From positions 256,001 through 320,000 of the forward strand of contig CM000429.1 in the NCBI GenBank assembly GCA_000165345.1: DNA of 64,000 nucleotides, given 5' to 3'. The position numbers and the translations under genes were made by a program. Shown here piece by piece: positions 16,381 to 61,488 of the stretch. The first letter of the stretch is position 1; the number at the start of each line of letters is the position of its first letter. The notes below the pieces were generated by a model, which saw nothing but the letters and a program-made list of their open reading frames with translations, searched no databases and was not told the DNA's origin.

Positions 16381-16651
16381 GATTTTACATTAAATTTATC
16401 AATATTCTTAGGAATGGGGTACTGAAAGAAATTATTTAAGCAAATTAATAAATAATTCAGGTAAAAGTTGAAAAACCAAAAAAAAAAAAAATAATTTTAT
16501 TTGAAAGAAAACAAGAGGGACTTTAATGAAAGGTTAGAGGGATAGTCCATAAAACTCTCCATATAAGAGAAGGAGTAAATCAAGGCCAATTAAGTTTAAA
16601 GCGGTGCAGATAAATACGGGTCTGTGTGTAAGTGTGGGGATAAGGAGTCCG

Positions 16652-39297: not shown

Positions 39298-42200
39298 TTA
39301 ACACAAGGCAAAGAATGACTCCAATTTTTGTCCCTGGTCTACACCGATACAATTTTGTGAGGGATAAATACTCTTCAAGTAGTGATGTAGCCTGCTTGCA
39401 ATCCCATCTATATCTTTAACTCCTAAATCAGTTTTGAATATTTGTGATAGACTCAAAATCTGCTGAGGATTCAACATCTGTAAAATCGTCTCCTTTAAAG
39501 TACTAAAACTCCTCCTTATTCTGCCAAAGTAGAAATTCCCTACTATCTTCTCTATTGTACTTCTCCTTACTGCTTTACTTGCTCTAAGAAGAGAGTTATT
39601 ATGATAATATGTTCCCCAATCAGACTTTTCAGTATCTATTCCTGAAAATGATTTTCTTAGTACATCAAGCTCTGGATCATATTTAAAGTGATTAAAAGCT
39701 GTTAATAACAAATTATGTAATGAATTCAATACTACTGATAGCTTGTAAGTGTCTTGCTTTATATTTGAAAGATATTTCTTGATCCTTTTTCTTAAGGCTT
39801 TGTGTGTTGTATGCTTCATCCTATAGAACCTCTGATATCCACCTTTTCTTACCTTTGGAAGTAAATTTATAGCAAACTCATTCAATGAAATAATTATCAG
39901 CATTTGTCTAACTGCCTTCTTTAGAGAATGTGACAACATTTCGTATCCTGTTATTCTGATATCTACATGTTGAATTTGAAATATCAAGTCAGAAAATAGC
40001 TTTAGCATCTCAAACTGTCTTGAACCTCTAATCTTACATTGACATAGTGCAAAACTTGAGAAATCCCGTCCTATCAATACAAAATTGGTCTTACCTGATT
40101 TAAAGAAAGGAAGACTTTCTTTTTCAATTTGTTTATTTTCATCCATTTTTGCCATTCCTTCTTTTGACTCCTTAATCATTGATAATTCTTCCTCCAATTC
40201 GTTCTTATGTTTCTCCAAATCTGCCTTTATTAATGAATTTAGCTCTTTTAAGTTCTCTATTGTTATTGGAAAGTCTTCTTTCAACATTTGAGCTGGAAAT
40301 TTATAATGTTCATTCACCATCTTGGCTGTATGTTTTGTATATCTTTTTTTCATATATCTACTAATTACTTTTGAATTTAGAAAAACAAAATCTCCATTTG
40401 TTAAGATTTTTAGTTCATTTGTCTCCAATTTTGCTGCTGCTGTCTGGATATTTCTTAACTCTGGCCTAAGCTCCACATTCACATTATCTAATGTCGATGT
40501 ATATGTATAAAATGCCTTTCTTAATAATCGTCTTGCTCCTTTAAGCTTTCTTCTTTTCTTACTAAAGTGATACCAATGCATTAAAGAAGAAAAACAGTTA
40601 TTTCCCACTTCCGAAACAAAATGACCATACTTGCTACCTTTCAAGTCCCTTCCTAATTCTCTGAATTCGTGTAATAGCTGAGATTGAGATACCTTTTGTA
40701 AGTTTTGGTTCATTTGAGTTATTGCTTTTTGGTTTGCAATCTTATTAAATGCTGATCCAAATAATGTTGAATGATCCTTAATCTTTTCACAAATATTTGT
40801 AGTTTCTCTAATATAATAGTTCATTGTATCAAAGTAGTTAATTAAACATGATCTATCTGTATCTACAAATACCTGCTCGAGATTCATCTTATTATCTGTT
40901 GAATCTTTATTTTTATATATTTGAGCGTTTCCAGGGATTATGCTTGGTAGAGATGAATTAACTACAAGAGGAATTAATAATCTATTTATTGTTATAAACC
41001 TCCTATTGTTATAATTCGCATCATCAAGTTCTGAGTTGAGCCTTGAACATATTTTTGAAGCTAAATTAGTTCTTCTAACACTTAAAATGGTACTAAGATT
41101 CTTAACTTGATTCCCAATAGAACCAAAAGACCTTTCAATACTTGCCAATTTACTATTTAATACCAAATTCTTTGTTGTTGGACATGTATTAATAAGCCAA
41201 GCATTAAACTTTGTATCTAACTTATTATTCAAAAAAAATTGACCAATTAAATCTAAAAGTGTAGTTGAAATATCCTGATCCATTTCATATTCAGATAGTC
41301 CCTGACTAGAAAGTACTTTCTTGTCACTTTCAACCATGCAAAGTTGAGAATTAGTATCAGCAGCTTTACGGGAATATTCATATAATTTGGAAGTCTGCAT
41401 ACCAAGTATTACATTCTTTCTATCAACAAAGATCAAGTTAACAGCTTTTAAATTCTCAGAAATTTCTTTAGTCTTTTTAGGATCTTCATCTGGTAAGTTC
41501 AAGAACTCATTATAGTCTGTACAGAATTGTTTCAAAGAATCAGTATAAAGCTTTATTTCAGTCAAAATGATAAGCTTCTCGTAGCTTTTTGATTCAAAAT
41601 AATGATCAATTTCCTCCCTAATTTTGTTAACACCAAGAATAATATCATCACAAACACCTTTCAAAGGAGAAATTTTATTTCTAAACCATCGACTAGCATC
41701 TTCATTTTCTCCAATTCCCCAGTTTTTATTCATTAAATCAAGAAAGGTTCTCAATGGACCCAAAATAGCCATAAATGATATTCCAGAATTAAAATCCATA
41801 TAATGCTCTAATAAATTACCAATATTAAATATGTGGAATATGAAAGCTTCTGGATTTAATGTATTATACATTTTAATTTGATTTTCTTTATCTATATTAT
41901 AAAGCTGCTTGTTCTTAATAGTATTCAAAACATCAGTAATCTGACCAATTCTGGCTGTCATATTAATATCATAATCTGAATTTTTATGCTTTTGAATTTC
42001 ATAGAGTATTTGGTCATTGATAAAGGTAGTAAAATCCTCAATAGCCGATTCACAGTTAATTCCATGATTAGTCTGGATTAGACAATAAATAACCTGCGAT
42101 AATTGTTCATCAAATGGCTCCATTTCATTAAAAAGCTCATCACCATCAAAATTCTCACCATTTATAACTCTATATATTGGGCTTAAGAGGAATAATATAA

Positions 42201-42495
42201 TTAATGCACCCTCATTTCTATGTCGTATTTGGATCTTGTCATATATTGATAGCCAGACCAAGGAAAGCGACTCAAATGGTGAAATCACCGGAAATTGTGC
42301 GGAAAGTTGCAACATATTATCAGAAAATACATAGAAATCGGCTTTTGAGCGTTTTCTATCAATATTATTAAGATCTTCCACTCTCATTGTACTTCTATAT
42401 GGGTCTTTTTGCTCTGCTTTCTGGTCACCAGTCGCATATTGCAACAAGGCCACCAATATCAAGCATGATATCTGAATTCCCCATATTATATTCAT
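39298..42495 (-). CDS. large hypothetical secreted protein (1065 aa) with cleavable-looking signal peptide
   Basis: MNIIWGIQISCLILVALLQYATGDQKAEQK... is followed by no further long hydrophobic segment. No homology recognised. It adjoins SEC14 and the giant secreted gene. Confidence 0.7.
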   Translation of the reverse strand: MNIIWGIQISCLILVALLQYATGDQKAEQKDPYRSTMRVEDLNNIDRKRSKADFYVFSDNMLQLSAQFPVISPFESLSLVWLSIYDKIQIRHRNEGALIILFLLSPIYRVINGENFDGDELFNEMEPFDEQLSQVIYCLIQTNHGINCESAIEDFTTFINDQILYEIQKHKNSDYDINMTARIGQITDVLNTIKNKQLYNIDKENQIKMYNTLNPEAFIFHIFNIGNLLEHYMDFNSGISFMAILGPLRTFLDLMNKNWGIGENEDASRWFRNKISPLKGVCDDIILGVNKIREEIDHYFESKSYEKLIILTEIKLYTDSLKQFCTDYNEFLNLPDEDPKKTKEISENLKAVNLIFVDRKNVILGMQTSKLYEYSRKAADTNSQLCMVESDKKVLSSQGLSEYEMDQDISTTLLDLIGQFFLNNKLDTKFNAWLINTCPTTKNLVLNSKLASIERSFGSIGNQVKNLSTILSVRRTNLASKICSRLNSELDDANYNNRRFITINRLLIPLVVNSSLPSIIPGNAQIYKNKDSTDNKMNLEQVFVDTDRSCLINYFDTMNYYIRETTNICEKIKDHSTLFGSAFNKIANQKAITQMNQNLQKVSQSQLLHEFRELGRDLKGSKYGHFVSEVGNNCFSSLMHWYHFSKKRRKLKGARRLLRKAFYTYTSTLDNVNVELRPELRNIQTAAAKLETNELKILTNGDFVFLNSKVISRYMKKRYTKHTAKMVNEHYKFPAQMLKEDFPITIENLKELNSLIKADLEKHKNELEEELSMIKESKEGMAKMDENKQIEKESLPFFKSGKTNFVLIGRDFSSFALCQCKIRGSRQFEMLKLFSDLIFQIQHVDIRITGYEMLSHSLKKAVRQMLIIISLNEFAINLLPKVRKGGYQRFYRMKHTTHKALRKRIKKYLSNIKQDTYKLSVVLNSLHNLLLTAFNHFKYDPELDVLRKSFSGIDTEKSDWGTYYHNNSLLRASKAVRRSTIEKIVGNFYFGRIRRSFSTLKETILQMLNPQQILSLSQIFKTDLGVKDIDGIASRLHHYLKSIYPSQNCIGVDQGQKLESFFALC

Positions 42496-43106: not shown

Positions 43107-44492
43107 TTAAGGATTAGTAATATCTTCTGTAGTTATTTTAGGTTTAATTTCGGTACCAAGGATCTGAGAAAGCTGTTCTGCTGTTTTCTTAGTGAAGTTA
43201 GCATTAGGTATTTGGCTAAGCCATGGGAGTTTTGTGAGATCAAATCTAGGTGGGATCTCAATGGAAATTCCAGAAATATATTCAGGGGGTATTATAGCGT
43301 GGATATTAGGAAATTTCTGATCTAGCTCATTCATTGGGTAAAATCTGAAGGGGTAAAAGTTTTCGGTTAAGTTAGGACATTTGCCTCCATATGACTCTTC
43401 AAGTTGTTCAAGAGGAACCAAACTAGTAATTTCATCAGAATAGGATTCATCAATAAATCTAATCTTTCTAACTGATGATCCTGGAATTGCAGCAACAAGA
43501 GCGTTACTAACAACATTTATAAACTTTGGACAGTTCACAATGAACATTCTATAAAGTCTCATTCTATAACGTGTATTAACAAGTGAAAGAACAGACTTTA
43601 GGACTTGAATAGGGAGATCAGTTATCCCTTTTCCAGCCAAGTCAATGATTACATTCCAGTTTTCAACTCTTCCTGCAACCTGAAGGTATTTAAGAAAGAA
43701 TTCTAGACAAAAACACAATAGCTTTTGGATTCGTTCGATTTCACCAACAAAAGTATCAAGCTTTGCAAGCTTCACAATAAGTATTGGCCTACACTTAATA
43801 TCCTTACCGTGCCAATAAATAGCTCCAACTTTAAGATCATTCATCACATCTTTCTCACTTATTGGTAGCTCCTTGATTCTAAATTCATGGTTACTTAACA
43901 TCATCTCCAAAGCCGTTTGGACATGAAAACGGGAAGAGGCCAAAAATCTCAATGCCTGAATCCAAATAGAGTGAGGAAACTTGTAGCCGTGGTTCTTAGC
44001 ATATTTTCTTAACTTTGCTAGATAAAGTTGTTCGTTTTCTGAAAGAATCTGGTTTAAATAAATATATCTTATTTCATCTTCTATTATATCACTTTCTGAT
44101 GGCTCAATTAACAAGCAACTTAAAGTGGTCGAAAATGGGTTTAAAGCGGAATATATTTCTACTCCTCCAATATTTCTCTGAATTGGTTTAGCATTTCCAG
44201 AATTAGTCATGGAAGTGCTCTTTGTTATTTCAAGATTCCCAACAGTTTCTTGAAGCTGAGGCAAACTATTCATCTTTCTGTCAAGAAATGCCCTAGAAGA
44301 AACTGGATCAAGCTCCTCAACAAGCTCCATATCAGACTCCTCCAATGCAGATGTAAAAGATACACTCTCTGACTCTGAGTGAGACTTTTCTAAAATCGAG
44401 GTATCCTTAAAGGCGTCTATAATCTCAGAAATACGCTCCTCCTCTTTGCTTAAACAAGGTCCTAACACTTCACCAGAATCTTGGTCTGCCAT
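43107..44492 (-). CDS. SEC14/CRAL-TRIO domain phosphatidylinositol-transfer-like protein (461 aa)
   Basis: Track start 44510 is GTG. The ATG is at 44492 (MADQDSGEVLGP...). The CRAL-TRIO core is IYWHGKDIKCRPILIVKLAKLD...ENWNVIIDLAGKGITDLPIQVLKSVLSLVNTRYRMRLYRMFIVNCPKFINVVSNALVAAIP. Confidence 0.75.
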   Translation of the reverse strand: MADQDSGEVLGPCLSKEEERISEIIDAFKDTSILEKSHSESESVSFTSALEESDMELVEELDPVSSRAFLDRKMNSLPQLQETVGNLEITKSTSMTNSGNAKPIQRNIGGVEIYSALNPFSTTLSCLLIEPSESDIIEDEIRYIYLNQILSENEQLYLAKLRKYAKNHGYKFPHSIWIQALRFLASSRFHVQTALEMMLSNHEFRIKELPISEKDVMNDLKVGAIYWHGKDIKCRPILIVKLAKLDTFVGEIERIQKLLCFCLEFFLKYLQVAGRVENWNVIIDLAGKGITDLPIQVLKSVLSLVNTRYRMRLYRMFIVNCPKFINVVSNALVAAIPGSSVRKIRFIDESYSDEITSLVPLEQLEESYGGKCPNLTENFYPFRFYPMNELDQKFPNIHAIIPPEYISGISIEIPPRFDLTKLPWLSQIPNANFTKKTAEQLSQILGTEIKPKITTEDITNP

Positions 44493-44580
44493 TTTGCTTA
44501 TTTTAACCACTTCTATTAATTTTGTCAGGCAAAATTCTGTATTGCTTTTTCTTTCCGTGTGAAAACGCTCACAAGATTGT

Positions 44581-44588
44581 TTGGCGCC
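44581..44588. promoter_or_regulatory. E2F-like TTGGCGCC, 89 nt upstream of SEC14 ATG (minus); second site ATGGCGCCAA at 44794-44803 toward the giant gene
   Basis: Two sites in one divergent promoter. Confidence 0.45.
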
Positions 44589-45024
44589 TTTTGTTTTGAC
44601 ATAAAGTGAGCTTTCTATAAAATAGGTTGCAAAAAAAAAAATCCGTCTTGATCTTCAAAAACTGTTTAGTATTAATGGAATATAGGTAGCTACTGCTTTA
44701 ATATTAACTTATTTTTGAGTTTTTCTTCTTTCTAAGTAATTTTGTAGAATTATGCATTTAACGCAAAATAATAATTTTTATAGTGGCACCATTATGGCGC
44801 CAACTGCTAGATCTAAATTTTTGGTGAGCGAGAACCAAGATGTTTAAAAAACTCTAAGAAGATTAAGAAATATCAAAAAAACAAGCAATTTCCTAATGAG
44901 TAAGATAACGTTGACTGTATTTATCTGATTTACTAAGAGCCTGAAAATCAGATACACTTTTTTCTATTGTTTGGTTCTTTATATAGAACTCTTTCGCCAT
45001 TTACACGAAGGATTAGATATTCCA

Positions 45025-48000
45025 ATGTCAAGAACCAAAAAGAGCTGGAAGAGGAATAATTCTGGCTTCCAGCTTTACATTAAACTTATTCCTGCTATTC
45101 TTCTTTGGATATTTTTTCTTTCTGGGAAAGTTTTATCATCTAATACTTATGAAAATCTTCAAAGCTCAAGAACAGGCAACTACTCTCCTCTCAGATACGA
45201 AGAAGCCTCAAGTAATTTTCAGGAAGGTAATAAACAACATCATTCTTTTATAAAAACTGGGAATTTAACTCCAGATGGACCATTATCCACTAGGAAATCT
45301 AGTTTAAATTCAGCACCTGATGAATCTCAGAAAAAAGACCCACTTTTAACCCAGCAAAATCCCTCCAGTGCATTCCTTCCTGAGATATTTATGTCCCAAT
45401 TGGACATGGAGTATGGGAATAGAAATCAGGGATCAGGGAGAATCACAGATAAAAATTCTGATGAGAGATCAGAAAGCAGCTTAAACTTACAAATATCGTC
45501 CTTGTCAACTTCTCCAGCAACAACTCTAGAATCTGATTTACAAAAATTATCTTCGGAACCAAATTCTTTAATGAATACTTCACTGAGTTTTTCTCCTCCG
45601 CCTGCTCCGCCACCACCTCCGCCTCTTCCAGGCCAATCCCCGACGAATAGTCCAAGTTTTCAGATGCTTGATCCTTTGTTTGAGCCTATAAATAAGAAGA
45701 AACAAGATGAATTCATTAAAGATTTAACAAAAATTAAATTAGTCTCAGATGTCCTACCAGTTCCTTTTAAGAAAAGCGAGCAGAAGTACGAATTTGGTTA
45801 TAGCCGCAATAGAAACCAGAGCCTAAACAATTATAAAATAAAGAATCTTGCAATAACTAGAGAAGAATTTAAGGAAAACCAGAAGAAACTGGAAGAGAAA
45901 GACCCTGAGCAGCAAGGTAAAGCTATTGATACTCCAGAGAGAGCTGAAGAAGACAAGATTGAGATGCTTCCATTACCTCTTGGGCCTCCAATTCCTGGTA
46001 CTGAGCCTGGAATAGAGGGTTTATCTCATATTATACCTTTAGATAAAGTACCAATTAGGCCTCAAAAGCGACAGGATGAGTGGGAATGCATTACCTCGCA
46101 GGTTGAAAGAGACAAAACCACATGGAAGATTGAAAAAGGTAAAATGAGGTTTAACTATATCCCAAAATTCAGTGAAATCAGCCAATCAATTTTTCCTTTA
46201 AGCGGAGATCCTAAAAGTTTGTATTATAACTGTATCTCAGCACTGAAGGCTTTGGAAGCTAAGTTAATTATTACTCCACCTTCCAGTGATGAGATTGAGG
46301 CAGAGTTTCTCAGAACTACCTTTTGCATTTCTGCTGCAGTATTTTGTTACGTAGAAACTGCCATGGGAGATCCAGAACTTCAGCTCTTTTGGAATCGTGA
46401 AGTTAGAACGATTACTGATGCCCTTGTTGCCAGGGATCCGAATTTGGATCTCCTTCAGGTTGTAGGTGAGAGTTTGGCTACAAAGATTGATACTCATGTT
46501 GGATCAACAGGAATTTCCTCCCCAGATCGTTTGCCAGATTTTATGCCTCAGAGAATGCCTAACCAAAGTTTTTCCTTTGCCTCCACAAAGTTGGAAACTT
46601 GCCCTACCAGGAATCAAAGAACCGATCAGGGAGACTATGAATATGAGGGAGGGCTTGCTGTAGCTTTGTCAACTAATATTAATGGTGTAATTGTTGATGA
46701 TCCTGAAATTTGGACAATGTGGAAAGCTATCATTACACAAAAGGATAGGGATTTAAATATGAATTTGAAGAGATTTAAGATTTTTTCAAAGGATTTTCCA
46801 GTAAAGTTTAGCTCAGATACAAAGCCAAAGAAGATGAGGGAGATGCGGAATTTATGCGTGGAACTAATAAGGGAGGGAATTAAAGAAAATCCTCCAAGAT
46901 ACGAACTTTTACCTTTGGCAAAACCAAATGAGGAGCAAGTTTTGAATGAGTTTTGTAACTATGCAGCAGACTACTACTTTGGAAATAGACAATGGAGTTA
47001 CATTTATGACTTTTCCTTAAATTCAAAATATATTAATGGGGTACCGGTTTACAGACCATATGCACCTTTTAGATATTTTGCAGCTGAAACATTTAATGAG
47101 ATGAGGAACAATTGTTGTTCAGTAATTTACGACCTCTTCTTAAGCAAAGTATTTCCTCACCTTTCTACAAATCACTATAGAGACAAAGGTGCTTCAATGG
47201 ATAAGTCAAAATTGGAACGATTCTGCCATGAAGCAGCTGGAAAGTACTTTAAGAAGGATACCTCAGAGTTTGACTCAAGGCTAAAGAATGTAGGATACTT
47301 TGATTTTGCAAGCTATAAATCAAGGGTAACCAATTACAAGAAAGCAAATTACCAATCTTTAGTATTAGAAGGTATGCATGACTTGGAGGATACTCCAGGA
47401 CACTTTTCAATAGGAAGTATTGATGGGAATCTAAGCTACACTCCAAGATTTCCAAACTTGAAGCCAACAAGAGTCTGTTTTTCACAGTGGAAGGCAATTC
47501 TAGACCAAAATAAGGAGGATCTTAAAAACAATATAGAAACTCCAACTCACTTGCCTGATGTAATTCCTAGTGAATGGAATATGCCTCAGTTTTCTCGAGC
47601 AACCTTTAAGATAACTTGCTTTAGAATATTACGTAAGTTATACAGAGAAGGAAGTGTTTCATTAAGATCTAGTGTTTTGAGACCAAGCAGTGTTGAGCAA
47701 AACATGGAGAAGATTTTCTCAGACTTTTGTACTGAGGCTTCCAAGAGATACTTTGATGGGCTAAACACAGATTATTCAATGGAAAGTCTTCTACAAGTTC
47801 AAGCTGATACAGAATCTCAGTGGAATTCGGTAGTAGAAGCTATAATGAGGCTTCAAGAGAGTAAGAAGAGCACAACAATCTATTGGGTTTACCCTATTCC
47901 TCCAGAAAGTTATGCTCTGAGTTTATTTAGATATAACGTGAACCCTTCTTCAGAAGATGAGGAAGAGGAGGAGAAGATTAAAAAGAGCTTTTGGAAATCA

Positions 48001-51000
48001 AGGGAAGGAGAAGTAGGATATGAAACTAGGTGCATCGAGTCATTAAAATTTTATAAAGCTAAAAGCGATGAAGAAATAATGAAAATGGAGGTTGACACCA
48101 AGGATATGGCATTAATTGAAATGGCAATGAGAAAGGTTTGTGAAGAAGCTGCTGACTCATTCTTCGGAGCAATTGAATGGATTTGGATGTATAAGCTTTC
48201 AAATATTGACAATATTAACAAGTATGCAACTTGGGTTCCAGCAGTTACAGGCCTGCCTAAGAGAAGACCAAATAGTTCTCTTTTAAAATACAAAGGGACA
48301 GGAAACATAGTACAATTCAGAAACTACTGCTTTGCATTTGTTTGGACCCTATGGAAATCAGGAAATGAGCCAGATCTAAGAATTTCAGGAAAGCTATATT
48401 CTCCAGGAGAGGGAAGTTTGGTGGATCAGAAGGCTCAGCTTGAGAGATGGTGCACTCATGTTGCGAACGAAGCCTATAACTCTGGATATAAGCTTTCTTT
48501 AGAAAAGAAGAAACAAGAAGGGATAGTCGACCTTATGCCTAGAGCAGACCCTCAGACCTCTCTCTCCGCGGTAGAGCATGAAAACAAGTCAGAACAAGAA
48601 AGCGCGCAGGTGATAGAAGGAGAAACTGTTGTTTTCTCTTTTGGAAACGCATCTTCACAGTGGAAAATGATCCTCTCACAAATTGAGGTAGATCGAAGAC
48701 GTAATATTAAAAGAATTGCTTGGCTTCCAGAGTATTCCGAAATTAAAGAATATTTCCCAGGGCCTGTCGAAAGGCGCCACTTTGTGCCCGCCTGCATGCA
48801 AATTTTGCAAAAGCTGGGTGAAAGAGGACTTTTGGTGTGGGGAACAGTCTCACCAGAGTACCAGGGAGTAGTGATCAGAGAATTTTGTTCAGATGCCTTC
48901 ATGAATGGATATGAGTGGAGAAATGACGACTCAAATCCAATTTCTGCACCATATGGAGAAAAGGAGGCAAATAGAGAGTTGCTCATAGAGTTTTTGAAAT
49001 TCATGCACACAAATCGAATGAACATAAGGAAGTGGATTCTTTTTTACTTGAATGAGAATTTGAATCTTGATTATGCAATAACGTGGGCTATTAATGAAGA
49101 TAACTGGGGTTATTTGAACGATTACTTCCATCAGTCACAACTTCACGAACCTGAAAACTTTGATCAGCTTTTTGAAGAGGTTAGGGAGAGAGTAAGGCAG
49201 ATGGGAGGTTTTGTAGATGCCTCTGGGGATGATTACTTCTCTAATAGTCCAACAGCTAGGGAGAATTTATGGAAAGCAATTTACAATCAAATGCATATAG
49301 ATTTACTTCTTGGAAGACAACAAAGAGTTTCAAATCTTCCATTGAATCCTCCAGAGATTTGGCTGGGCTCAAAGAGTCCAGAGGAATTTGTAGCCGATTG
49401 CAAAAGAGTGATAACAATGTTGCAAGGCCAAACAAACCCTGATTTGCCTTCAAGTAAAGAGCTAACATTAAAGGAGATTCTTACTGCTGTTAGAGTCTTT
49501 GCAAGTGGTGATAAAGACGATTCTGAAATACTTAATTCATATTGCGATGATGTTCTTCTGCATGTTTCTGATAAAAGAGGAAGCTCAATTTTCAAAGGTA
49601 GTGGATTTAGTTATCCAGGAGCAATTTTGGAATTTGAAAGAAATAGACAATGGGGAGTCATTGCAAATTTAGAAAGTAAGTACTCAAAGCTTGAGCAAAG
49701 AGATGTTGATGGCAAAATTGGCTCTATTTCGAGAATCTCGAAAATTCCAGGGTTTGTAAGGCACACCATATTCCAAGGAAGCTATGATATGGAGGAATTC
49801 CAGTCTCAATGCGAAATTGCTCTTCAAACTTTGGCAACTGATATTAATATTCCGTCACATCTACGGGTTGTTTTTCCCGATATGCATGCTGGAGAAAAGA
49901 TTGAGGATATCATAAAAGAATATTGCAGAACTGCTTCCGAATACGCTTTCCAAGAAAAGGTTGATCACGCTCTAAGTGAAGATGCAACAGAAGAAGCTGC
50001 AATTTTGAATGATTTGGACACTGTTAGTCGAAAATTCAAGCTAAGAAATCCTTTGGGTCTAGACTACTCCAAACGATGGAATAGCATTATAGACCTCGCT
50101 AAGAAAAGAATTGAAGAAGAAAAGTACTTAAGGATGAATAGAGTGCTTGAGATCGACTCTGCGTGGCTTAAGAATACTTATCCAGAGATTTCAGGGAAAG
50201 ACTTAAAAAATGCTTTTGATTCAAAGGGAAATAATCACCTTGCAAGCTTTGTATTAGTCTCATATGAGCTTTTTTCAGCTATTTTGCTTGGAAAGGAAGG
50301 GAATAATGGAGCTAATAAGGACAAATTCAAGTTCATATCCAGGAAAACTCTACTACAATTCTGTAGAGATGTCTGCTACAAGTATTTTACCGATGAAGCA
50401 AGAGGTGACGTAAACTACTCTAGCCGAGATAAAGCAGCTACGGAAAACGCTTTGATTCTTGACATGATTGCAACCAGACCTAGAATTGGCCCTGACCCGA
50501 GAGACCCACTTTACGAGCTTTATCCTGAACAAGGAGAGGAGGTCCCTGAATTAAATAGCTTTAATATGGACCAGTATATCACCTCTAGGTGGGAAATCTA
50601 CAAAAAAGACTTTGAAAGTGACAGTTACAAGGAAAATTTGCGCAAAAATATTATGGATAGTCTCACTTCTGCAGAAATTAATCTCCTTAATCCTGGAAGT
50701 GGAAAACCTTCACCTATTGGAAATAATATTGTTTGGGCGCCAACTGCCCCCTATCCCTGGAAGCACCACACTGCAAGCAAAATTGCATTGCAAGGGAATG
50801 CGCATGCATCAAATGGTGGAGCCGTTTTGGCGGGTAAAACGTTGGAGCATATGAAGTCAATTTTCGGAGGAAATATTGCAGATGTTGCAAAGGTTGCAGT
50901 CATTCCGGCAATTCCAGACCCCAATTCTAGAAAGCAAAATGGAAAGTCAGATCATCAGAGTGGTAGTGGATCTTCTACAGATTTTGGAACAAGTAATCGC

Positions 51001-52356
51001 ATTTTACCTTTGGGCGACTTTGGAGAGACCGCCAAGGTCAAAAGACTCAAAATTGGAACTAAAGGTGGAAGGGCGATTAAAGGAAGGGAAGTTAACCCTA
51101 TCGAAGACAAGTTTGATCAAATAGATAGAGAGTATAAAGAATTGGTTTCTAATAACTTTATCTCTAAAGGAGCCTTAGGCGAAAATGAAGAGAAAAATAT
51201 TATAAGTGGAATCAAGCCTAGGAATAGGAGTAATCCTGATCGAATCTCACAAGAACCCAGGAAAAAGATCAGATCTAATCGGAGCAAAGGTAGCCGCTCT
51301 TCTGACGCTTCAGTCGCAGAAGGTGAACCACCTGAGGGAAGCTTGGAAGAAAAGACTTTAACCAAGGAAGAGTTAGCAAGTTCTAGATTAGCTGATAGAG
51401 AATGGACTGTCATTTCTCAACTGGGGAAGATTTTACCTGCAAATGAGGGGTCAAATTTAGTAGCAGGGATTCCAATTGAAAGGCCAAAGGACTTTTACAA
51501 AAAACCTATGGGAAATGTAAGAGGTATGACTGAAGCCTGTTTCTCTGTCATATCTAATGCAAAATTTAGAGCAATTTCAGGTACTCGAATTTCTGGAAAA
51601 ACAAAGGAGGAAAGAAGACAGAATGCTAACTTTTACTGCAGGAAGGCAGCCGAAGCCTACTATGAATCTATTGATGGAGAATTTATTCCCCCTAAAGGCT
51701 TTGAAAACCTTCCAGGATTCTATGGGCTATATAGTTCTATTGGGAAATCCAAAGCTGTTCGAGGAAGAGGTAATCGTGTCTTCCTAGGAGAAAGCTCTGC
51801 AAACCCAATAGGTAAAGAGGTGGGCCTGAAACCATTACATAAGGAATCTGCCAGAATTAGAAGATCCTTTGGTCCAACAGTTGGTTCTTTTGGACTAAAT
51901 GTTCATATGCAGAATCAGTCTAACTCTTTAGCAAATACTTATAGCAAAATTTCTGCAGCTGATTCAACTGTAATAAGCGGATTCGGTATTAGTGGTAAGG
52001 CGTCCAGAATTAAAAGGAGTGTTTTTACAGACTCCAAGAATAATGTCAGAGAGAGATTAGAGCTGAGTCCAGGAGATGATTTACTGACTGATCCTGACTA
52101 TTATAATGATGTAAAACCTGTAACAACTCCGAACAGTTATGTTGAAATGAGGCCATCAAAAGGACTTGGGTCAGGGGCCCCAAGGCCTGGAAAGTCACCA
52201 AAAAAAGATAAATTTGGCAATCCAGAGGTTTATTATGTTCATCCAAGACCAGATATAGTGGAAGAAGCTAAGATAAAATCTCAGCTTGCTAAACGAATTA
52301 ACCAATTTTCTACAATTAACAAACCAGAAAATAAAAATCGTCCAAATAGTAGTTAG
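45025..52356 (+). CDS. giant secreted/anchored protein (2443 aa) composed of ~10 tandem copies of an undescribed ~200-250-aa module; Pro-rich N-terminal region; Gly/Arg/Lys-rich C-terminal region
   Basis: Track ORF starts at TTG 44971. The first ATG is 45025 (MSRTKKSWKRNNSGFQLYIKLIPAILLWIFFLSGKVLSS is a basic N-region plus hydrophobic core). Each unit pairs a W-[KN]-x-I-[ILV] motif with a [FY]-C-x-x-[AV]-[AS]-x-x-[YF]-[FY] motif downstream. The W motif occurs as QWKAILDQNK, MWKAIITQKD, QWKMILSQIE, LWKAIYNQMH, RWNSIIDLAK and QWNSVVEAIM. The C motif occurs as EFCNYAADYYF, RFCHEAAGKYF, DFCTEASKRYF, KVCEEAADSFF, RWCTHVANEAY, EFCSDAFMNGY, EYCRTASEYAF, QFCRDVCYKYF and FYCRKAAEAYY. Confidence 0.8.
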   Translation: MSRTKKSWKRNNSGFQLYIKLIPAILLWIFFLSGKVLSSNTYENLQSSRTGNYSPLRYEEASSNFQEGNKQHHSFIKTGNLTPDGPLSTRKSSLNSAPDESQKKDPLLTQQNPSSAFLPEIFMSQLDMEYGNRNQGSGRITDKNSDERSESSLNLQISSLSTSPATTLESDLQKLSSEPNSLMNTSLSFSPPPAPPPPPPLPGQSPTNSPSFQMLDPLFEPINKKKQDEFIKDLTKIKLVSDVLPVPFKKSEQKYEFGYSRNRNQSLNNYKIKNLAITREEFKENQKKLEEKDPEQQGKAIDTPERAEEDKIEMLPLPLGPPIPGTEPGIEGLSHIIPLDKVPIRPQKRQDEWECITSQVERDKTTWKIEKGKMRFNYIPKFSEISQSIFPLSGDPKSLYYNCISALKALEAKLIITPPSSDEIEAEFLRTTFCISAAVFCYVETAMGDPELQLFWNREVRTITDALVARDPNLDLLQVVGESLATKIDTHVGSTGISSPDRLPDFMPQRMPNQSFSFASTKLETCPTRNQRTDQGDYEYEGGLAVALSTNINGVIVDDPEIWTMWKAIITQKDRDLNMNLKRFKIFSKDFPVKFSSDTKPKKMREMRNLCVELIREGIKENPPRYELLPLAKPNEEQVLNEFCNYAADYYFGNRQWSYIYDFSLNSKYINGVPVYRPYAPFRYFAAETFNEMRNNCCSVIYDLFLSKVFPHLSTNHYRDKGASMDKSKLERFCHEAAGKYFKKDTSEFDSRLKNVGYFDFASYKSRVTNYKKANYQSLVLEGMHDLEDTPGHFSIGSIDGNLSYTPRFPNLKPTRVCFSQWKAILDQNKEDLKNNIETPTHLPDVIPSEWNMPQFSRATFKITCFRILRKLYREGSVSLRSSVLRPSSVEQNMEKIFSDFCTEASKRYFDGLNTDYSMESLLQVQADTESQWNSVVEAIMRLQESKKSTTIYWVYPIPPESYALSLFRYNVNPSSEDEEEEEKIKKSFWKSREGEVGYETRCIESLKFYKAKSDEEIMKMEVDTKDMALIEMAMRKVCEEAADSFFGAIEWIWMYKLSNIDNINKYATWVPAVTGLPKRRPNSSLLKYKGTGNIVQFRNYCFAFVWTLWKSGNEPDLRISGKLYSPGEGSLVDQKAQLERWCTHVANEAYNSGYKLSLEKKKQEGIVDLMPRADPQTSLSAVEHENKSEQESAQVIEGETVVFSFGNASSQWKMILSQIEVDRRRNIKRIAWLPEYSEIKEYFPGPVERRHFVPACMQILQKLGERGLLVWGTVSPEYQGVVIREFCSDAFMNGYEWRNDDSNPISAPYGEKEANRELLIEFLKFMHTNRMNIRKWILFYLNENLNLDYAITWAINEDNWGYLNDYFHQSQLHEPENFDQLFEEVRERVRQMGGFVDASGDDYFSNSPTARENLWKAIYNQMHIDLLLGRQQRVSNLPLNPPEIWLGSKSPEEFVADCKRVITMLQGQTNPDLPSSKELTLKEILTAVRVFASGDKDDSEILNSYCDDVLLHVSDKRGSSIFKGSGFSYPGAILEFERNRQWGVIANLESKYSKLEQRDVDGKIGSISRISKIPGFVRHTIFQGSYDMEEFQSQCEIALQTLATDINIPSHLRVVFPDMHAGEKIEDIIKEYCRTASEYAFQEKVDHALSEDATEEAAILNDLDTVSRKFKLRNPLGLDYSKRWNSIIDLAKKRIEEEKYLRMNRVLEIDSAWLKNTYPEISGKDLKNAFDSKGNNHLASFVLVSYELFSAILLGKEGNNGANKDKFKFISRKTLLQFCRDVCYKYFTDEARGDVNYSSRDKAATENALILDMIATRPRIGPDPRDPLYELYPEQGEEVPELNSFNMDQYITSRWEIYKKDFESDSYKENLRKNIMDSLTSAEINLLNPGSGKPSPIGNNIVWAPTAPYPWKHHTASKIALQGNAHASNGGAVLAGKTLEHMKSIFGGNIADVAKVAVIPAIPDPNSRKQNGKSDHQSGSGSSTDFGTSNRILPLGDFGETAKVKRLKIGTKGGRAIKGREVNPIEDKFDQIDREYKELVSNNFISKGALGENEEKNIISGIKPRNRSNPDRISQEPRKKIRSNRSKGSRSSDASVAEGEPPEGSLEEKTLTKEELASSRLADREWTVISQLGKILPANEGSNLVAGIPIERPKDFYKKPMGNVRGMTEACFSVISNAKFRAISGTRISGKTKEERRQNANFYCRKAAEAYYESIDGEFIPPKGFENLPGFYGLYSSIGKSKAVRGRGNRVFLGESSANPIGKEVGLKPLHKESARIRRSFGPTVGSFGLNVHMQNQSNSLANTYSKISAADSTVISGFGISGKASRIKRSVFTDSKNNVRERLELSPGDDLLTDPDYYNDVKPVTTPNSYVEMRPSKGLGSGAPRPGKSPKKDKFGNPEVYYVHPRPDIVEEAKIKSQLAKRINQFSTINKPENKNRPNSS

Positions 52357-53997: not shown

Positions 53998-55179
53998 ATG
54001 AGTGATATAGGGGAAAAAGTGGAGCTTCATATTTACGACTTAAGTAATGGAATGGCATCTCAACTATCCCCAATGCTTTTGGGAAGAACGATTGAAGCTA
54101 TTTATCATACAGGAGTATTTGTTTATGGGTATGAATACTTTTATGGAGGTGGGATAGTTTGTGTTAGACCAGAAGAGATTACCAGATTGTATGGACTAAA
54201 ACCTATTCGAACATTGACATTGGGAACCACGAAAAAGTCTCAGAAAGAACTAAATAGCCACTTGGAATCAATTTCTAATGAATTTAACAGCGATAACTAC
54301 GACCTTTTAAATCATAACTGTAATCACTTTTCAGATAATATAGTCAAGTTTTTGATAGGAGAAGGTATTCCATCTTATATTTTAGATCTGCCAAATGAGG
54401 TGATGAGAACTCCTTTTGGTTCAATGATTCTTCCAATGCTACAAAAAGCGCAGAAGAGTCAGGCAATTCGCTCAGTTGCAAATGTTTGGAACACGAATGG
54501 AATCAACCCCTCAAATGTGATCAATAAAACTGCAGAGGAGTTCAGTTATTTGAGTTCTGGGTCAAGCTCTACAGGGAGTAGTAGAACAAGCCATCACTCT
54601 AGATCTTCTGGATCTTCAGATAGTATTTCTGAGTTTTCTAAGAAGCTGAGCACTGTTTCCAACAAGTATGGATGGCAGTGCCAAAGAGTATTAGAAACTC
54701 TCGAAACTATACTTTTCAATATTATAAGTAATCCCGGTGACTTAAGATACAGAAGCATTAAATCAACAAGTAATACACTAAAGAGTGTATTAATGAGTAT
54801 AGATGAAGGCCTTGAATTACTATTCTTAGTTGGTTTCCGTGAGAAGCAAGCGGAGGATCAACTTAGATACGAAATACAACTAAGCCAACCACTGAGCAGA
54901 GAGGAAAGAGAGCAATTAGAAACTCAAATTAACTTGGTCAGGCGTACCTTAAGCTCCCTGGGGATGGCAAGTGAGCAAGAAACGCAAGAGTCAGCATGCC
55001 CAGAATCCAAAGCAAGCAATGGATCAAAGTCAGAAAGTACAATTGACTATGTAAAACTATTAGCAGAAGTGAAAGGAATGGGATTTGAGGACAATAAGAA
55101 AATACTACAAGCCCTTCACAAGACTAATGGAGACATCTCCCGCACCGTGTCAATTCTGCTGGATGAACAGAGCCAATAG
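53998..55179 (+). CDS. PPPDE (DUF862, DeSI-type Cys isopeptidase) + PUB domain + C-terminal UBA domain fusion protein (393 aa)
   Basis: PPPDE core is VELHIYDLSNG...IEAIYHTGVFVYGYEYFYGGGI...YDLLNHNCNHFSDNIVKFL, with a His/Cys dyad. PUB motif is ILFNIISNPGDLRYRSIKSTSNTLKSVLMSIDEGLELLFLVGFRE (PNGase-type NPxDxKYRSIR...GF). UBA is IDYVKLLAEVKGMGFEDNKKILQALHKTNGDISRTVSILLD. Confidence 0.75.
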   Translation: MSDIGEKVELHIYDLSNGMASQLSPMLLGRTIEAIYHTGVFVYGYEYFYGGGIVCVRPEEITRLYGLKPIRTLTLGTTKKSQKELNSHLESISNEFNSDNYDLLNHNCNHFSDNIVKFLIGEGIPSYILDLPNEVMRTPFGSMILPMLQKAQKSQAIRSVANVWNTNGINPSNVINKTAEEFSYLSSGSSSTGSSRTSHHSRSSGSSDSISEFSKKLSTVSNKYGWQCQRVLETLETILFNIISNPGDLRYRSIKSTSNTLKSVLMSIDEGLELLFLVGFREKQAEDQLRYEIQLSQPLSREEREQLETQINLVRRTLSSLGMASEQETQESACPESKASNGSKSESTIDYVKLLAEVKGMGFEDNKKILQALHKTNGDISRTVSILLDEQSQ

Positions 55180-58389: not shown

Positions 58390-61300
58390 TTATTTGCATG
58401 CAGATAAATTTTTATTGTGGCATGCAATTGTATGCAAAATCAATTCAAAGAAATCGCGAGAGAATTTTTCTCCATCGCAAAGTTTGGATTCAGTGAGTAT
58501 TCTACGAAGATTTGAGCGATAATAAATTAGTCTTTCAGTATCATTTGCAAGGCTTAAAGCGGCTTTAATAAATTCTTTCTTATTACTTGCAATGAGTTCA
58601 TTCAAGTTTAAATTAGTGAGAATGGACCTTCCAACATTTTGAGAATGAAATGACGAAATTTCAGTATAAATGTCTGAAGAATCTATTTGGGAATTTTCTG
58701 ATTGGTCAATACTTAAAGTAATTAATGGAACTCCCATAAAAATACATTCAAATGTCGTGGTTGTTCCAGCATATGGGAAAGTATCTAAAGAAATGTCAAT
58801 ATCATTATAAAGCTCCAGATGAGAGTAATAAGAGTTGCTTAAGGGGATTAAAGAAATTCTATGTGGTTGAATATTGTATTTTGATTTGAAAATTTCAAGA
58901 TAAAAATTGCAACAAGACTGTGAGCTGAATGCTTTGGATTTAAGCAACAAATGGCTTTCAGGAACACTTTTTAGGACTTCACCCCAAAGTTCTATTGTTA
59001 AGGGATGTAATTTAGTAACTCTGTTGAAAGATCCAAAAGTTATAAATCCATTTTTTTTCATAGGAGGTTCGGAAATTGGTGGATGTTGAATTTTTGGTAA
59101 AGTATAACAAAGAAAGCAATTTGGGAGATAAAGTAATTTTTCAGAGTATTTTTGTTTTGTATGAAGAGGATCAACTATCTTATCAGTAATACGATAATCA
59201 ATGTACTTTAATCCAGTAGTGTTTGGATACCCAATCCAAGAGATTTGTATTGGAGAGTTTTTTAAAGCAAATAAAGCCAAGCAATTATTGACTGTATGAC
59301 CACTTAAGTCAAAGAGAATATGGATATTATCACTCCGGATAAGCTTTGAAGAAAATTCAATATCTTTCCCATGTATATATCTCCAATTTTCACTAGGAAT
59401 AAGATCCTTGAAAAAACATGAATAATAGTCATGGTGAGGGGAATTGTCATATATGAAGATATTCAGTTTGACTTGTGAATTGCCTTCTATATTACAATCT
59501 CTAGTTGAGTTCTTTGAGAAATTCTTAATTAAAAATTTTATGGGAGCTAAAATGAAGAATGCAACTGCATGATGGAAGTATTCTGCACCAACAAACCCTA
59601 TATTAATCAATTGTTTGTCTGAAGTTGACTCAATATCTGGAATTTCAGCAATAGGAATTAAATCATCAAGACGGTTCTTGATTTCTCTATGAATCTCGAT
59701 GAATTTATCCCCCCATTCCAAAGATAGGTCATACATATCTTGGTAATTTATATAATAATCGGAGTTATTTATCCAGATTTGAGACTCGCATACATAAGAT
59801 TCTGGAGTAGAGCTGATATCTAAGCAAAGACTCTTTTCAGAATCCTTTAAGTTATTAATAATTGACTCAATTGAATTGTTTCTAATATTACCAATTAACT
59901 TTGGGTTATCTAATGGAATAAAGTAATTCAAAATATACAATAGGTTCTGAAACGCCAAAGTATGGTTAGGATCTAGCTCAAGAGCTACTAGAAAACAGTT
60001 TTTTGCCATCAAAAAGTTCCCACAGTCTCTATAAAGCACTCCAAGATTATTATATACATCGGGAACGCCTTGATTAACTTCGATACACCTTTTAAAATAC
60101 TCGTATGACTCGTCAATCTTACCAATATTACCGTATAAAGCTGCAATAACATTCAATGTAGTAATACAATTTTGATTAATTCTGGAAATCCTTTCATAAC
60201 ATAAAATTGCTTGATCAATAAATCCAAGCTTTCTAAGAATTATCCCAAAGTTATCATAGGCATTAACATTCATAGGATTAAAGTGGATTGAAAGTTTGAA
60301 GCACCAAATGGCCTTTTCTTCCTTACCTAATTCATAATATATTATTCCCAAGTCAGTGTATGCTTCTGAAGATTGTGGAATATATAATATCACTTTTTTC
60401 AAAATGGACTTAACTAGGCTAAATCCAGCATTTTTTTTTCTGGCTTCAACTGCTTTATTATAAAGTAATTTACCAAAATAAGATCTGAAATCATCATTAA
60501 ATGGATTTTTCTTGATTAATCTCTCCATAATACCAATGCTCTTATCAATATTGCCATCGATCTCGAAACAAAGTCTGGATAATGAATACCCAATTTCACA
60601 ATTAATACAGTTTTTGTTTGATTCAAAGCATTCCTGTAGCAAATTCTTGCATCTAGAATAAACTTCAAGATTTTTAGAATCATTTATTCTAATATTCGCT
60701 AAAGGTGGTTGACTAAGTTCTATTCCATTCAAAGATAATATTATCCTAACCATACAATGAATAATATTTGGATAAAATAAAAAACAACTCAAGAAATATT
60801 GATGTGAATTATTTTCCAGAAATTCCAGTTTATTTGATTTGAATAGTATTAAAATTGTCTCCTTGAGACAATTTACTAGTCTATCAATATCCTGATACTT
60901 ATTTGCAATATAATTTAATGCAAGACAAGCATCATCATAATTTTTAAGAGAAATTTGAATAATTCCAAATGACAAAACTTGCATAATTAGTTCATGAATT
61001 CTATCAGTATTCTTTATTGAGTTTTCATTATCGTTAATTGATTCGATATTTGTCATTTTGTAACGAATACAATTCTGGATCAGATCAATTATTAAAGAAA
61101 TAACTCTATCAAAATTTACCAATTTAATATTAAAAATTTGAAGCAGAATCTTGGAGAAAATCATTCCTATAAAGTAAGCCAAGTCCTCCATATCAGACTC
61201 TTCAAACTTTTGTATGTCCGAAAGTTTACTTAAGCATTTATTGCAAGAGTAACTCCTTAAATTAATACATATTTGTTGAAATGACTCAATATTATTTAAA

Positions 61301-61488
61301 AGTTCAATTAAAATTGTGCCCACAATACTAATATGATCATTATTCAATAAATGTTCATCAGCTCCATTCACTACCCATTCTTTGAAATTAATGTTACCAT
61401 CAAATTCGGAATTATTACAAAAGCAAAAAATAGTCATTTCTTGGCAAGTTTCTGGGATTTTATTCGTAACTCCACCATCTTTCAGCAT
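58390..61488 (-). CDS. SPINDLY/OGT-family (GT41) glycosyltransferase with N-terminal TPR repeats (1032 aa); in apicomplexans this family acts as a nucleocytoplasmic O-fucosyltransferase
   Basis: TPR block: AYTDLGIIYYELGKEEKAIWCFKLSIHFNPMNVNAYDNFGIILRKLGFIDQAILCYERIS...VYNNLGVLYRDCGNFLMAKNCFLVALELDPNHTLAFQNL. GT41 catalytic region: IGFVGAEYFHHAVAFFI...HILFDLSGHTVNNCLALFALKNSPIQISWIGYPNTTGLKYIDYRITDKIVDPLHTKQKYSEKLLYLPNCF. Confidence 0.8.
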   Translation of the reverse strand: MLKDGGVTNKIPETCQEMTIFCFCNNSEFDGNINFKEWVVNGADEHLLNNDHISIVGTILIELLNNIESFQQICINLRSYSCNKCLSKLSDIQKFEESDMEDLAYFIGMIFSKILLQIFNIKLVNFDRVISLIIDLIQNCIRYKMTNIESINDNENSIKNTDRIHELIMQVLSFGIIQISLKNYDDACLALNYIANKYQDIDRLVNCLKETILILFKSNKLEFLENNSHQYFLSCFLFYPNIIHCMVRIILSLNGIELSQPPLANIRINDSKNLEVYSRCKNLLQECFESNKNCINCEIGYSLSRLCFEIDGNIDKSIGIMERLIKKNPFNDDFRSYFGKLLYNKAVEARKKNAGFSLVKSILKKVILYIPQSSEAYTDLGIIYYELGKEEKAIWCFKLSIHFNPMNVNAYDNFGIILRKLGFIDQAILCYERISRINQNCITTLNVIAALYGNIGKIDESYEYFKRCIEVNQGVPDVYNNLGVLYRDCGNFLMAKNCFLVALELDPNHTLAFQNLLYILNYFIPLDNPKLIGNIRNNSIESIINNLKDSEKSLCLDISSTPESYVCESQIWINNSDYYINYQDMYDLSLEWGDKFIEIHREIKNRLDDLIPIAEIPDIESTSDKQLINIGFVGAEYFHHAVAFFILAPIKFLIKNFSKNSTRDCNIEGNSQVKLNIFIYDNSPHHDYYSCFFKDLIPSENWRYIHGKDIEFSSKLIRSDNIHILFDLSGHTVNNCLALFALKNSPIQISWIGYPNTTGLKYIDYRITDKIVDPLHTKQKYSEKLLYLPNCFLCYTLPKIQHPPISEPPMKKNGFITFGSFNRVTKLHPLTIELWGEVLKSVPESHLLLKSKAFSSQSCCNFYLEIFKSKYNIQPHRISLIPLSNSYYSHLELYNDIDISLDTFPYAGTTTTFECIFMGVPLITLSIDQSENSQIDSSDIYTEISSFHSQNVGRSILTNLNLNELIASNKKEFIKAALSLANDTERLIYYRSNLRRILTESKLCDGEKFSRDFFELILHTIACHNKNLSACK

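Follow-up and report, generated by a model that had tools for sequence, protein, structure and literature searches.

The window analyzed here is a 64,000-nt stretch of DNA (positions 256,001 to 320,000 of the forward strand of contig CM000429.1, GenBank assembly GCA_000165345.1) with a G+C content of ~30%, and the product of its largest gene is a protein of 2443 amino acids (aa) that we refer to as the giant protein. The gene is a single unbroken, intron-free open reading frame (ORF) of 2443 codons, running from an ATG at 45025 to a stop at 52356, and its translation is identical to EAK88460.1 / QOY43502.1 (CPATCC_000293) of Cryptosporidium parvum Iowa II. We infer that it corresponds to cgd1_1250, a number taken from those of the neighboring genes (cgd1_1240 for the Sec14 gene, cgd1_1270 for the PPPDE/PUB gene, and cgd1_1230) rather than from a direct look-up. 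We found that the giant protein carries an array of about eleven copies of a repeated unit, the W-C-C module. As judged from sequence profiles, nine of these copies are statistically solid, one (U05) is well supported and one (U11) is a candidate. The coding sequence and the units are listed below with the conserved Trp and Cys residues of each unit. Where two independent E-values (i-E) are given, the first comes from the family model and the second from a paralogue-only model, a hidden Markov model (HMM) built from the units of paralogous proteins and excluding the giant protein and its orthologues.

45025..52356, + strand: coding sequence of the giant protein (ORF translation; exact GenBank protein match)
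46063..46359, + strand: U01, aa 347-445; W353, C403, C434; i-E 7e-20 and 2.1e-10
46702..46995, + strand: U02, aa 560-657; W566, C611, C644; i-E 1.6e-24 and 7.8e-14
46984..47265, + strand: U03, aa 654-747; W657, C697, C734; unseeded, recruited at E = 6e-22; paralogue-only i-E 8e-11
47470..47772, + strand: U04, aa 816-916; W822, C865, C902; i-E 3.8e-24 and 4.5e-15; the unit modeled singly
47812..48171, + strand: U05, aa 930-1049; W933, C1003, C1039; carries an acidic insertion, EDEEEEEK
48160..48492, + strand: U06, aa 1046-1156; W1052, C1102, C1143; unseeded, recruited at E = 6.9e-21; paralogue-only i-E 3e-6
48643..48930, + strand: U07, aa 1207-1302; W1213, C1257, C1288; i-E 3e-23 and 3.5e-11
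49252..49578, + strand: U09, aa 1410-1518; W1416, C1459, C1507; i-E 3.3e-20 and 2e-11
49633..49965, + strand: U10, aa 1537-1647; W1543, C1596, C1634; i-E 1.9e-21 and 6.8e-9
50071..50394, + strand: U11, candidate degenerate unit, aa 1683-1790; W1685 and C1780 present, middle Cys missing
51382..51675, + strand: U13, aa 2120-2217; W2127, C2172, C2205; unseeded, recruited at E = 5.6e-22; paralogue-only i-E 5e-11

An earlier, preliminary description of this DNA had proposed about 10 copies of a unit of 200-250 aa. The number was close, since nine copies are significant and U05 is recovered through a double-unit alignment, while U11 stays at decoy level. The length was an overestimate: units measure ~95-115 aa, and the longer period fits only the double units U02-U03 and U05-U06. 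The nine positions given there for the Cys motif were found again within a few nucleotides, at 46954, 47224, 47728, 48139, 48451, 48886, 49924, 50362 and 51637. Its motif patterns fared less evenly. In their strict forms they match fewer sites (five for W-[KN]-x-[IV]-[ILV] and four for the full Cys motif), whereas relaxed forms match nine and ten. These relaxed counts are far above the numbers expected from shuffles (0.33 for the Trp motif and 0.02 for the Cys motif), and neither was reached in 2000 composition-preserving shuffles of the core. As the relaxed patterns were written after the sequence had been seen, we relied on independent tests of homology.

Three such tests agree that the repeats are real. 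In the first, candidate units were cut from an alignment of nine orthologues and the sub-alignments were compared with hhalign. This connected the units in a network in which U03 pairs with U06 at 97% (E = 9e-11), U02 with U04 and U04 with U07 at 94%, U01 with U07 and U03 with U13 at 93%, U09 with U10 at 92% and U04 with U09 at 83%. In the second, an iterated HMM seeded on six units recruited U03, U06 and U13, none of which had been used as a seed, while reversed decoys remained at E >2.7. In the third, the paralogue-only HMM found nine units in the giant protein at i-E values from 3e-6 to 4.5e-15, against 0.0015 for the best decoy. The periodicity, whose absence the preliminary description had named as grounds for abandoning the proposal, is thus borne out by all three and by the double-unit alignment described below. 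Plain pairwise methods nearly miss these repeats: whole-protein self-BLAST returned the identity match only, and BLAST of fragments against the whole protein gave weak pairs only (best E ~4e-5). Profiles are therefore needed to see them.

The units at the margins of the array deserve separate comment. Because of its acidic insertion U05 scores poorly alone, with weak or split matches to the single-unit HMM (i-E 0.13-0.67); the corresponding unit of the paralogue P0017 does reach significance (i-E 5.6e-9). U06 follows U05 directly, and the U05-U06 pair can be aligned with U02-U03 over its whole length; in the 18 sequences compared, neither the Trp nor any of the four Cys varies. Because the double units align in this way, part of the array probably grew by duplication of a two-unit block, and the same arrangement is seen in an ancient paralogue. 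The two homologous double units, U02-U03 (46702-47265) and U05-U06 (47812-48492), share eight invariant residues. The paralogue-only model spans the full length of U11 at an i-E of 0.016, which is decoy level, and hhalign gives this unit no support. Two further segments, U08 (aa 1318-1400) and U12 (aa 1845-1925), were considered as degenerate units and rejected, being Cys-free and reaching at most 1% against every unit in hhalign. The first of them is a feature in its own right:

48976..49224, + strand: Cys-free segment, aa 1318-1400, among the most conserved stretches of the protein in orthologues and co-linear with the paralogue

This segment is rich in Trp and Tyr (RKWILFYLNEN...WAINEDNWGYL...EEVRERVRQMGGF) and could represent a small domain of another kind within the array.

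Across 45 unit sequences (nine units from five species) exactly three alignment columns are invariant: W9, C52 and C89. The distance from the Trp to the second Cys is 75-106 residues and that between the two Cys is 31-48 residues. The protein has 27 cysteines (1.1% of its residues), 21 of which occupy the two conserved positions. Two subtypes can be recognized, one with W-K-A-I-x-x-Q (U02, U04, U07, U09 and others) and one with a G-[LIV]-P-x-x-R-P loop (U03, U06 and U13). The AlphaFold2 model of U04, computed from the 45-sequence unit alignment, has a predicted local distance difference test score (pLDDT) of 88.7 and a predicted template modeling score (pTM) of 0.81. It is composed of three helices (residues 2-21, 45-61 and 74-99), with two short strands forming a bridge between the loops. 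Helix A carries the Trp, and helices B and C carry the first and the second Cys, respectively. The high-confidence prediction for the W-C-C module is thus a bundle of three helices and a short beta bridge. A model of the U02-U03 tandem, made from an 18-sequence alignment (pLDDT 84.1, pTM 0.80), includes the following element:

46930..47022, + strand: predicted continuous 31-residue helix, aa 636-666 (DSSP, residues 85-115 of the tandem model)

In this predicted helix, helix C of U02 runs unbroken into helix A of U03. The 'Y-F-G-x-x-x-W' spacing found at this junction recurs between U05 and U06. U01 carries an extra Cys pair, C355 (46087-46089) and C441 (46345-46347). The former lies two residues past the Trp, in helix A, and the latter seven residues past the helix C Cys. 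Both are kept in all orthologues and in the first unit of the paralogue ('W-x-C-I...F-C-I-S-A-A-x-Y-C'), and their positions suggest a second disulfide, joining helix A to helix C.

Purifying selection acts strongly on the repeat core. When the ratio of nonsynonymous to synonymous substitution rates (dN/dS) was calculated by the Nei-Gojobori method, first against C. hominis and then against C. meleagridis, the core (aa 341-1900) gave 0.047 and 0.053 and U13 gave 0.09 and 0.056. Values were 0.19 and 0.23 for aa 1901-2120, 0.19 and 0.13 for the tail (aa 2221-2443), and 0.57 and 0.35 for the N-terminal region (aa 1-340). Every unit keeps its own sequence and position throughout the genus and in the ancient paralogue. 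This constraint and the kept unit order argue against interchangeable spacers and against a fast-evolving antigen.

We then asked where the module occurs. We searched 1.84 billion representative proteins exhaustively with the unit HMM. At E <= 0.001 there were 13 matches, all of them Cryptosporidium proteins, a stronger restriction than the lineage-specific repeat that had been proposed. By profile search, the W-C-C module is detectable only in this genus, in roughly six protein groups. A word-indexed homologue search with the short unit alignment gave no matches; this looks like a prefilter limit, because the exhaustive HMM search did find the family. We propose a 'W-C-C three-helix module' family defined by unit length, the W/C/C pattern and a match to the profile, and the giant protein belongs to it by each of these. 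The first group is the giant protein and its orthologues, which include those of intestinal species and, at 46% identity, that of the gastric C. muris. The second is a co-linear paralogue of ten units, 1889-2096 aa long and present genus-wide. The C. parvum copy of this second group, EAK87652.1 (P0052, CPATCC_001569; 2091 aa), is 23-27% identical to the giant protein over >1500 aa (E = 9e-43). It has neither the Ser/Pro-rich N-terminal extension nor the polyproline tract described below. The whole giant gene appears to have been duplicated before the split between gastric and intestinal Cryptosporidium. The remaining groups comprise proteins of 1426-1602 aa (including C. parvum EAK88104.1), proteins of ~800 aa whose chromosome 7 genes adjoin those of ABC transporters, a two-unit protein of 486 aa (C. 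parvum EAK90104.1) and a 1263-aa protein of C. canis. Of 13 other family members, none has a membrane-like window beyond the N-terminus, and 12 open with a signal-peptide-like hydrophobic segment. P0025 is without such a segment, but the upstream extension of its ORF points to a truncated gene model. No module-bearing neighbors were seen at the four paralogue loci inspected, and there was no tandem clustering.

Several of these proteins already share a label. The C. hominis orthologue of the giant protein (PPS97264.1) is annotated as 'Secreted Protein (CpLSP family)', as are the C. felis orthologue and the C. hominis copies of the 2091-aa and 1601-aa module-bearing paralogues. The name CpLSP was coined for seven adjacent, co-expressed genes of chromosome 7, cgd7_3800 to cgd7_3870 (PMC1779779). 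In the sense used by annotators (a large protein with a signal sequence, confined to Cryptosporidium and so labeled), the giant protein is a CpLSP. In the original sense it is not: that cluster lies on chromosome 7, whereas the giant gene is single-copy, has the gene numbers of chromosome 1 and stands among unrelated neighbors. The 13 clusters of the profile search can all be assigned to the six or so groups above, none of which is the chromosome 7 LSP cluster. Since 13 clusters are too few for seven genes across many species, it is probable that the original cluster carries no module that the profile can detect.

Outside the array, the giant protein has the following regions:

45064..45135, + strand: hydrophobic segment, aa 14-37, after a basic 13-aa leader (Kyte-Doolittle)
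45145..46044, + strand: variable region, aa 41-340, Ser/Pro-rich and Cys-free (composition; low orthologue conservation)
45595..45630, + strand: polyproline tract PPPAPPPPPPLP, aa 191-202 (position in translation; orthologue alignment)
51685..52353, + strand: basic tail, aa 2221-2443, net charge +16, rich in Gly, Ser, Lys and Arg (composition)

The hydrophobic segment is the sole region of the whole protein in which a 19-aa window exceeds 1.6 on the Kyte-Doolittle scale. The N-terminal signal or anchor sequence of the preliminary description is therefore present, and it may be either a signal peptide or a signal anchor. Were it to remain uncleaved, the protein would have a type II signal anchor and the module array would project from the membrane of the parasite or of an organelle. 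The hydrophobic stretch of ~20 residues after a 13-aa leader of net charge +5 is compatible with such an anchor, and one genome annotates the C. meleagridis orthologue as 'putative integral membrane protein'. Most annotations, however, read 'secreted' or 'signal peptide', the module-bearing paralogues have short, classical signal-peptide-like N-termini, and the conserved small residues V-L-S-S after the hydrophobic core fit a cleavage site. We therefore regard an anchored array as unlikely.

The polyproline tract, which had also been noted in the preliminary description, is the one well-conserved patch within the otherwise variable N-terminal region in the orthologue alignment, and long Pro runs, longer than those of C. 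parvum, are found in the gastric species C. muris. Beneath an attached Cryptosporidium cell the actin of the host is known to be rearranged. One could imagine a host-directed effector in which the tract (SPPPAPPPPPPLPG) binds host profilin or SH3, WW or EVH1 domains and joins the actin remodeling at the attachment site. The conservation of the Pro run in a fast-evolving region and its greater length in C. muris would fit this role. We nevertheless hold it to be very unlikely, as 2443 aa of stable, probably disulfide-bonded domains make a poor candidate for transfer across a membrane and polyproline runs are common as simple spacers. In addition, the paralogues are without the N-terminal extension, so the tract is not a feature of the family.

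The C-terminal 400 aa had been described as rich in Gly, Arg and Lys. This holds for the basic tail, while the same region also contains a genuine unit, U13, within its basic surroundings. The four basic sites quoted from this region exist. The tail has two sites of the R-x-[KR]-R type (aa 2276-2281 and aa 2327-2332), which are candidate processing sites and no more and which stay basic in most orthologues. Within this loosely conserved tail, two motifs are strongly conserved: RPSKGLGSGAPRPGK at aa 2376-2390 (52150-52194) and DPDYY at aa 2356-2360 (52090-52104).

Secretion of the giant protein is predicted from its signal-like N-terminus, the lack of any further membrane-spanning segment and its paired invariant Cys, and the extracellular or secretory-organelle location suggested in the preliminary description is supported to this extent. 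On balance, we consider it somewhat probable that the protein is a secreted, elongated, disulfide-stabilized structural scaffold or multivalent binding platform. It would enter the endoplasmic reticulum, where a disulfide between the two invariant Cys of each module would staple helices B and C together, as may be expected from the invariance of these residues, the secretory signal and the near-absence of other Cys. Where modules abut, helix C would pass straight into the next helix A, producing a long, fairly stiff rod and not beads on a string. Each unit would probably offer its own binding surface, because the order and the sequences of the units are conserved under purifying selection. The basic tail and the polyproline tract may serve as additional attachment elements. 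The site of action would lie outside the parasite cytosol, in the lumen of a secretory organelle, at the parasite-host interface or in the envelope of the oocyst or sporozoite.

Several points weigh against a secreted scaffold or binding platform. The disulfide is deduced from the invariance of the Cys residues, and the rod from the model of a single tandem pair, for which 18 sequences were aligned; linkers of 50-200 aa lie between most units. The ~20-residue hydrophobic segment, following a strongly basic leader, might stay uncleaved as an anchor. The role of a scaffold or binding platform is moreover generic and points to no particular ligand. Our literature search found no localisation, secretion or stage data for the gene: cgd1_1250, the numbers of its neighbors and the protein accessions were absent from the main texts searched, and cgd1_1250 was absent from the supplements queried.

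A narrower version of the scaffold reading, differing from it in location only, is that the giant protein is a structural protein of sexual stages and the oocyst wall, made in female stages, held in wall-forming bodies and then deposited in the oocyst wall or sporozoite coat. A large, secreted, genus-specific and strongly conserved protein with paired Cys would suit a transmission-stage component, and its absence from the searchable tables of a sporozoite extracellular-vesicle proteome is a weak negative against a secretory product of sporozoites. With a Cys content of only 1.1%, however, it is without the closely spaced Cys/His repeats of known oocyst wall proteins, and the literature search gave no stage-specific expression. 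We consider this placement quite unlikely.

We also offer, as speculation, a bolder extension of the secreted scaffold. The W-C-C module may be a new extracellular fold that arose within Cryptosporidium, with the giant protein and its paralogue forming rigid, disulfide-stapled rods in the attachment/feeding interface that is unique to this genus, or in another structure unique to it, and with the tract and the tail tying the rod to partners. Taken as a whole, this proposal is distinctly improbable.

The neighborhood of the giant gene contains no second copy of the module. Its neighbors include a KH-domain protein, a protein kinase and the following genes, and the gene order around it is the same in C. 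hominis and C. meleagridis:

39298-42495, - strand: 1065-aa protein with a signal-like N-terminus and no Pfam family
43107-44510, - strand: CRAL/TRIO (Sec14) protein, the upstream neighbor (domain scan; cgd1_1240)
53998-55179, + strand: PPPDE + PUB protein (domain scan; cgd1_1270)
58390-61488, - strand: 1031-aa protein with TPR repeats and a glycosyltransferase family 41 (GT41) domain, OGT/SPY type

The SEC14 gene and second secreted protein reported earlier as neighbors are thus both present, as the CRAL/TRIO protein and the next gene, which has a signal-like start. We take the latter, the 1065-aa protein, to be cgd1_1230. In the supplement of PMC13241007, a study of the dense-granule protein DG8 at the host-parasite interface, cgd1_1230 is labeled 'Signal peptide region containing protein' and has a row in the pull-down table. 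The 1065-aa protein was considered as a paralogue of the giant protein and rejected, as it has neither a module match nor a Pfam family. A unit-profile scan of the ORFs of the window showed no other that carries the module; one partial match, in the ORF at 16553-19960 (+ strand; E = 0.0016), was judged to be due to chance. The translation of this ORF resembles that of a multi-pass membrane protein whose C-terminal part is hydrolase-like, and the W/C/C pattern is not in register. In the ~510-bp intergenic region between the divergent Sec14 and giant genes we noticed two GGCGCC-core motifs, at 44583-44588 and 44796-44801 (GTTTGGCGCC and TTATGGCGCC). Such motifs resemble E2F-type sites, and they are too generic to point to a life-cycle stage.

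Cryptosporidium is a leading cause of severe childhood diarrhea, and much of its secreted repertoire is without recognizable domains, which blocks the prediction of function. That the gene encodes a hypothetical secreted protein was already known from its annotation. The definition of the module, its predicted fold, its restriction to one genus, the uniting of the family and the strong constraint appear to be new, and our literature search found no publication describing the W-C-C module. A searchable profile now links about six uncharacterized groups, among them two giant co-linear proteins that are conserved in gastric and intestinal species alike. Module proteins can be tagged or deleted as a set and shared partners sought, and a definition based on homology could replace the loose 'CpLSP family' label. 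The constrained core, absent from hosts and other organisms by profile search, would be a candidate diagnostic or vaccine antigen if it is surface-exposed.

As the preliminary description had anticipated, searches of Pfam, of PDB sequences and with Foldseek gave no convincing match to a characterized domain family. A Pfam scan of the whole protein returned no family at E <= 1, spectrin included, and no catalytic or adhesive domain. When 40 units were scanned singly no family was common to them, each weak match being confined to one unit. The best match of the unit profile among all PDB sequences had an E of 0.57, and the best Foldseek match of the unit model in PDB an E of 2. Thus none of the three outcomes that the preliminary description had set as refuting (a lack of periodicity, motifs at chance frequency or a known family) was observed. 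These results bear on the suggestion that the units are a divergent form of a known helical repeat, such as spectrin-like repeats or the three-helix surface domains of Plasmodium, or else chance motifs. Chance is excluded by the shuffles, the reversed decoys and the detection of the units by the paralogue-only model, and a known repeat is contradicted by the Pfam and Foldseek results. We regard the suggestion, in either form, as extremely improbable.

The module has a likeness to the spectrin repeat (PF00435), in which three helices likewise make up a unit of ~100 aa, the first helix bears a Trp and the last continues into the first helix of the next unit to form a rod, as predicted here. The uninterrupted inter-repeat helix has its predicted counterpart at the U02/U03 junction. 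PF00435 was nevertheless absent from the matches of both the whole protein and the 40 units, and no structural superposition on solved spectrin-type three-helix repeats was obtained. Because no Pfam, PDB-sequence or Foldseek match supports it, the similarity is architectural only. Cryptosporidium oocyst wall proteins (COWPs) and apicomplexan adhesins with TSP1, EGF, Apple/PAN or LCCL domains are also large, secreted proteins built from repeated, Cys-containing extracellular modules. The giant protein differs from them in that none of these domains, nor that of COWPs, was detected and in having 27 Cys in 2443 residues, two per unit, without the closely spaced type I/II Cys-rich repeats of COWPs. 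Its unit is predicted to be helical, in contrast to their small disulfide-rich knot. Finally, the V2 three-helix domain of Plasmodium RIFINs scores in the range of any helical bundle, below the cap domains of the HAD family, and a sub-threshold Pfam RIFIN match was seen in one of the 40 units (E = 0.054). RIFINs are short, hypervariable, single-domain proteins, whereas the array of the giant protein is strongly conserved.

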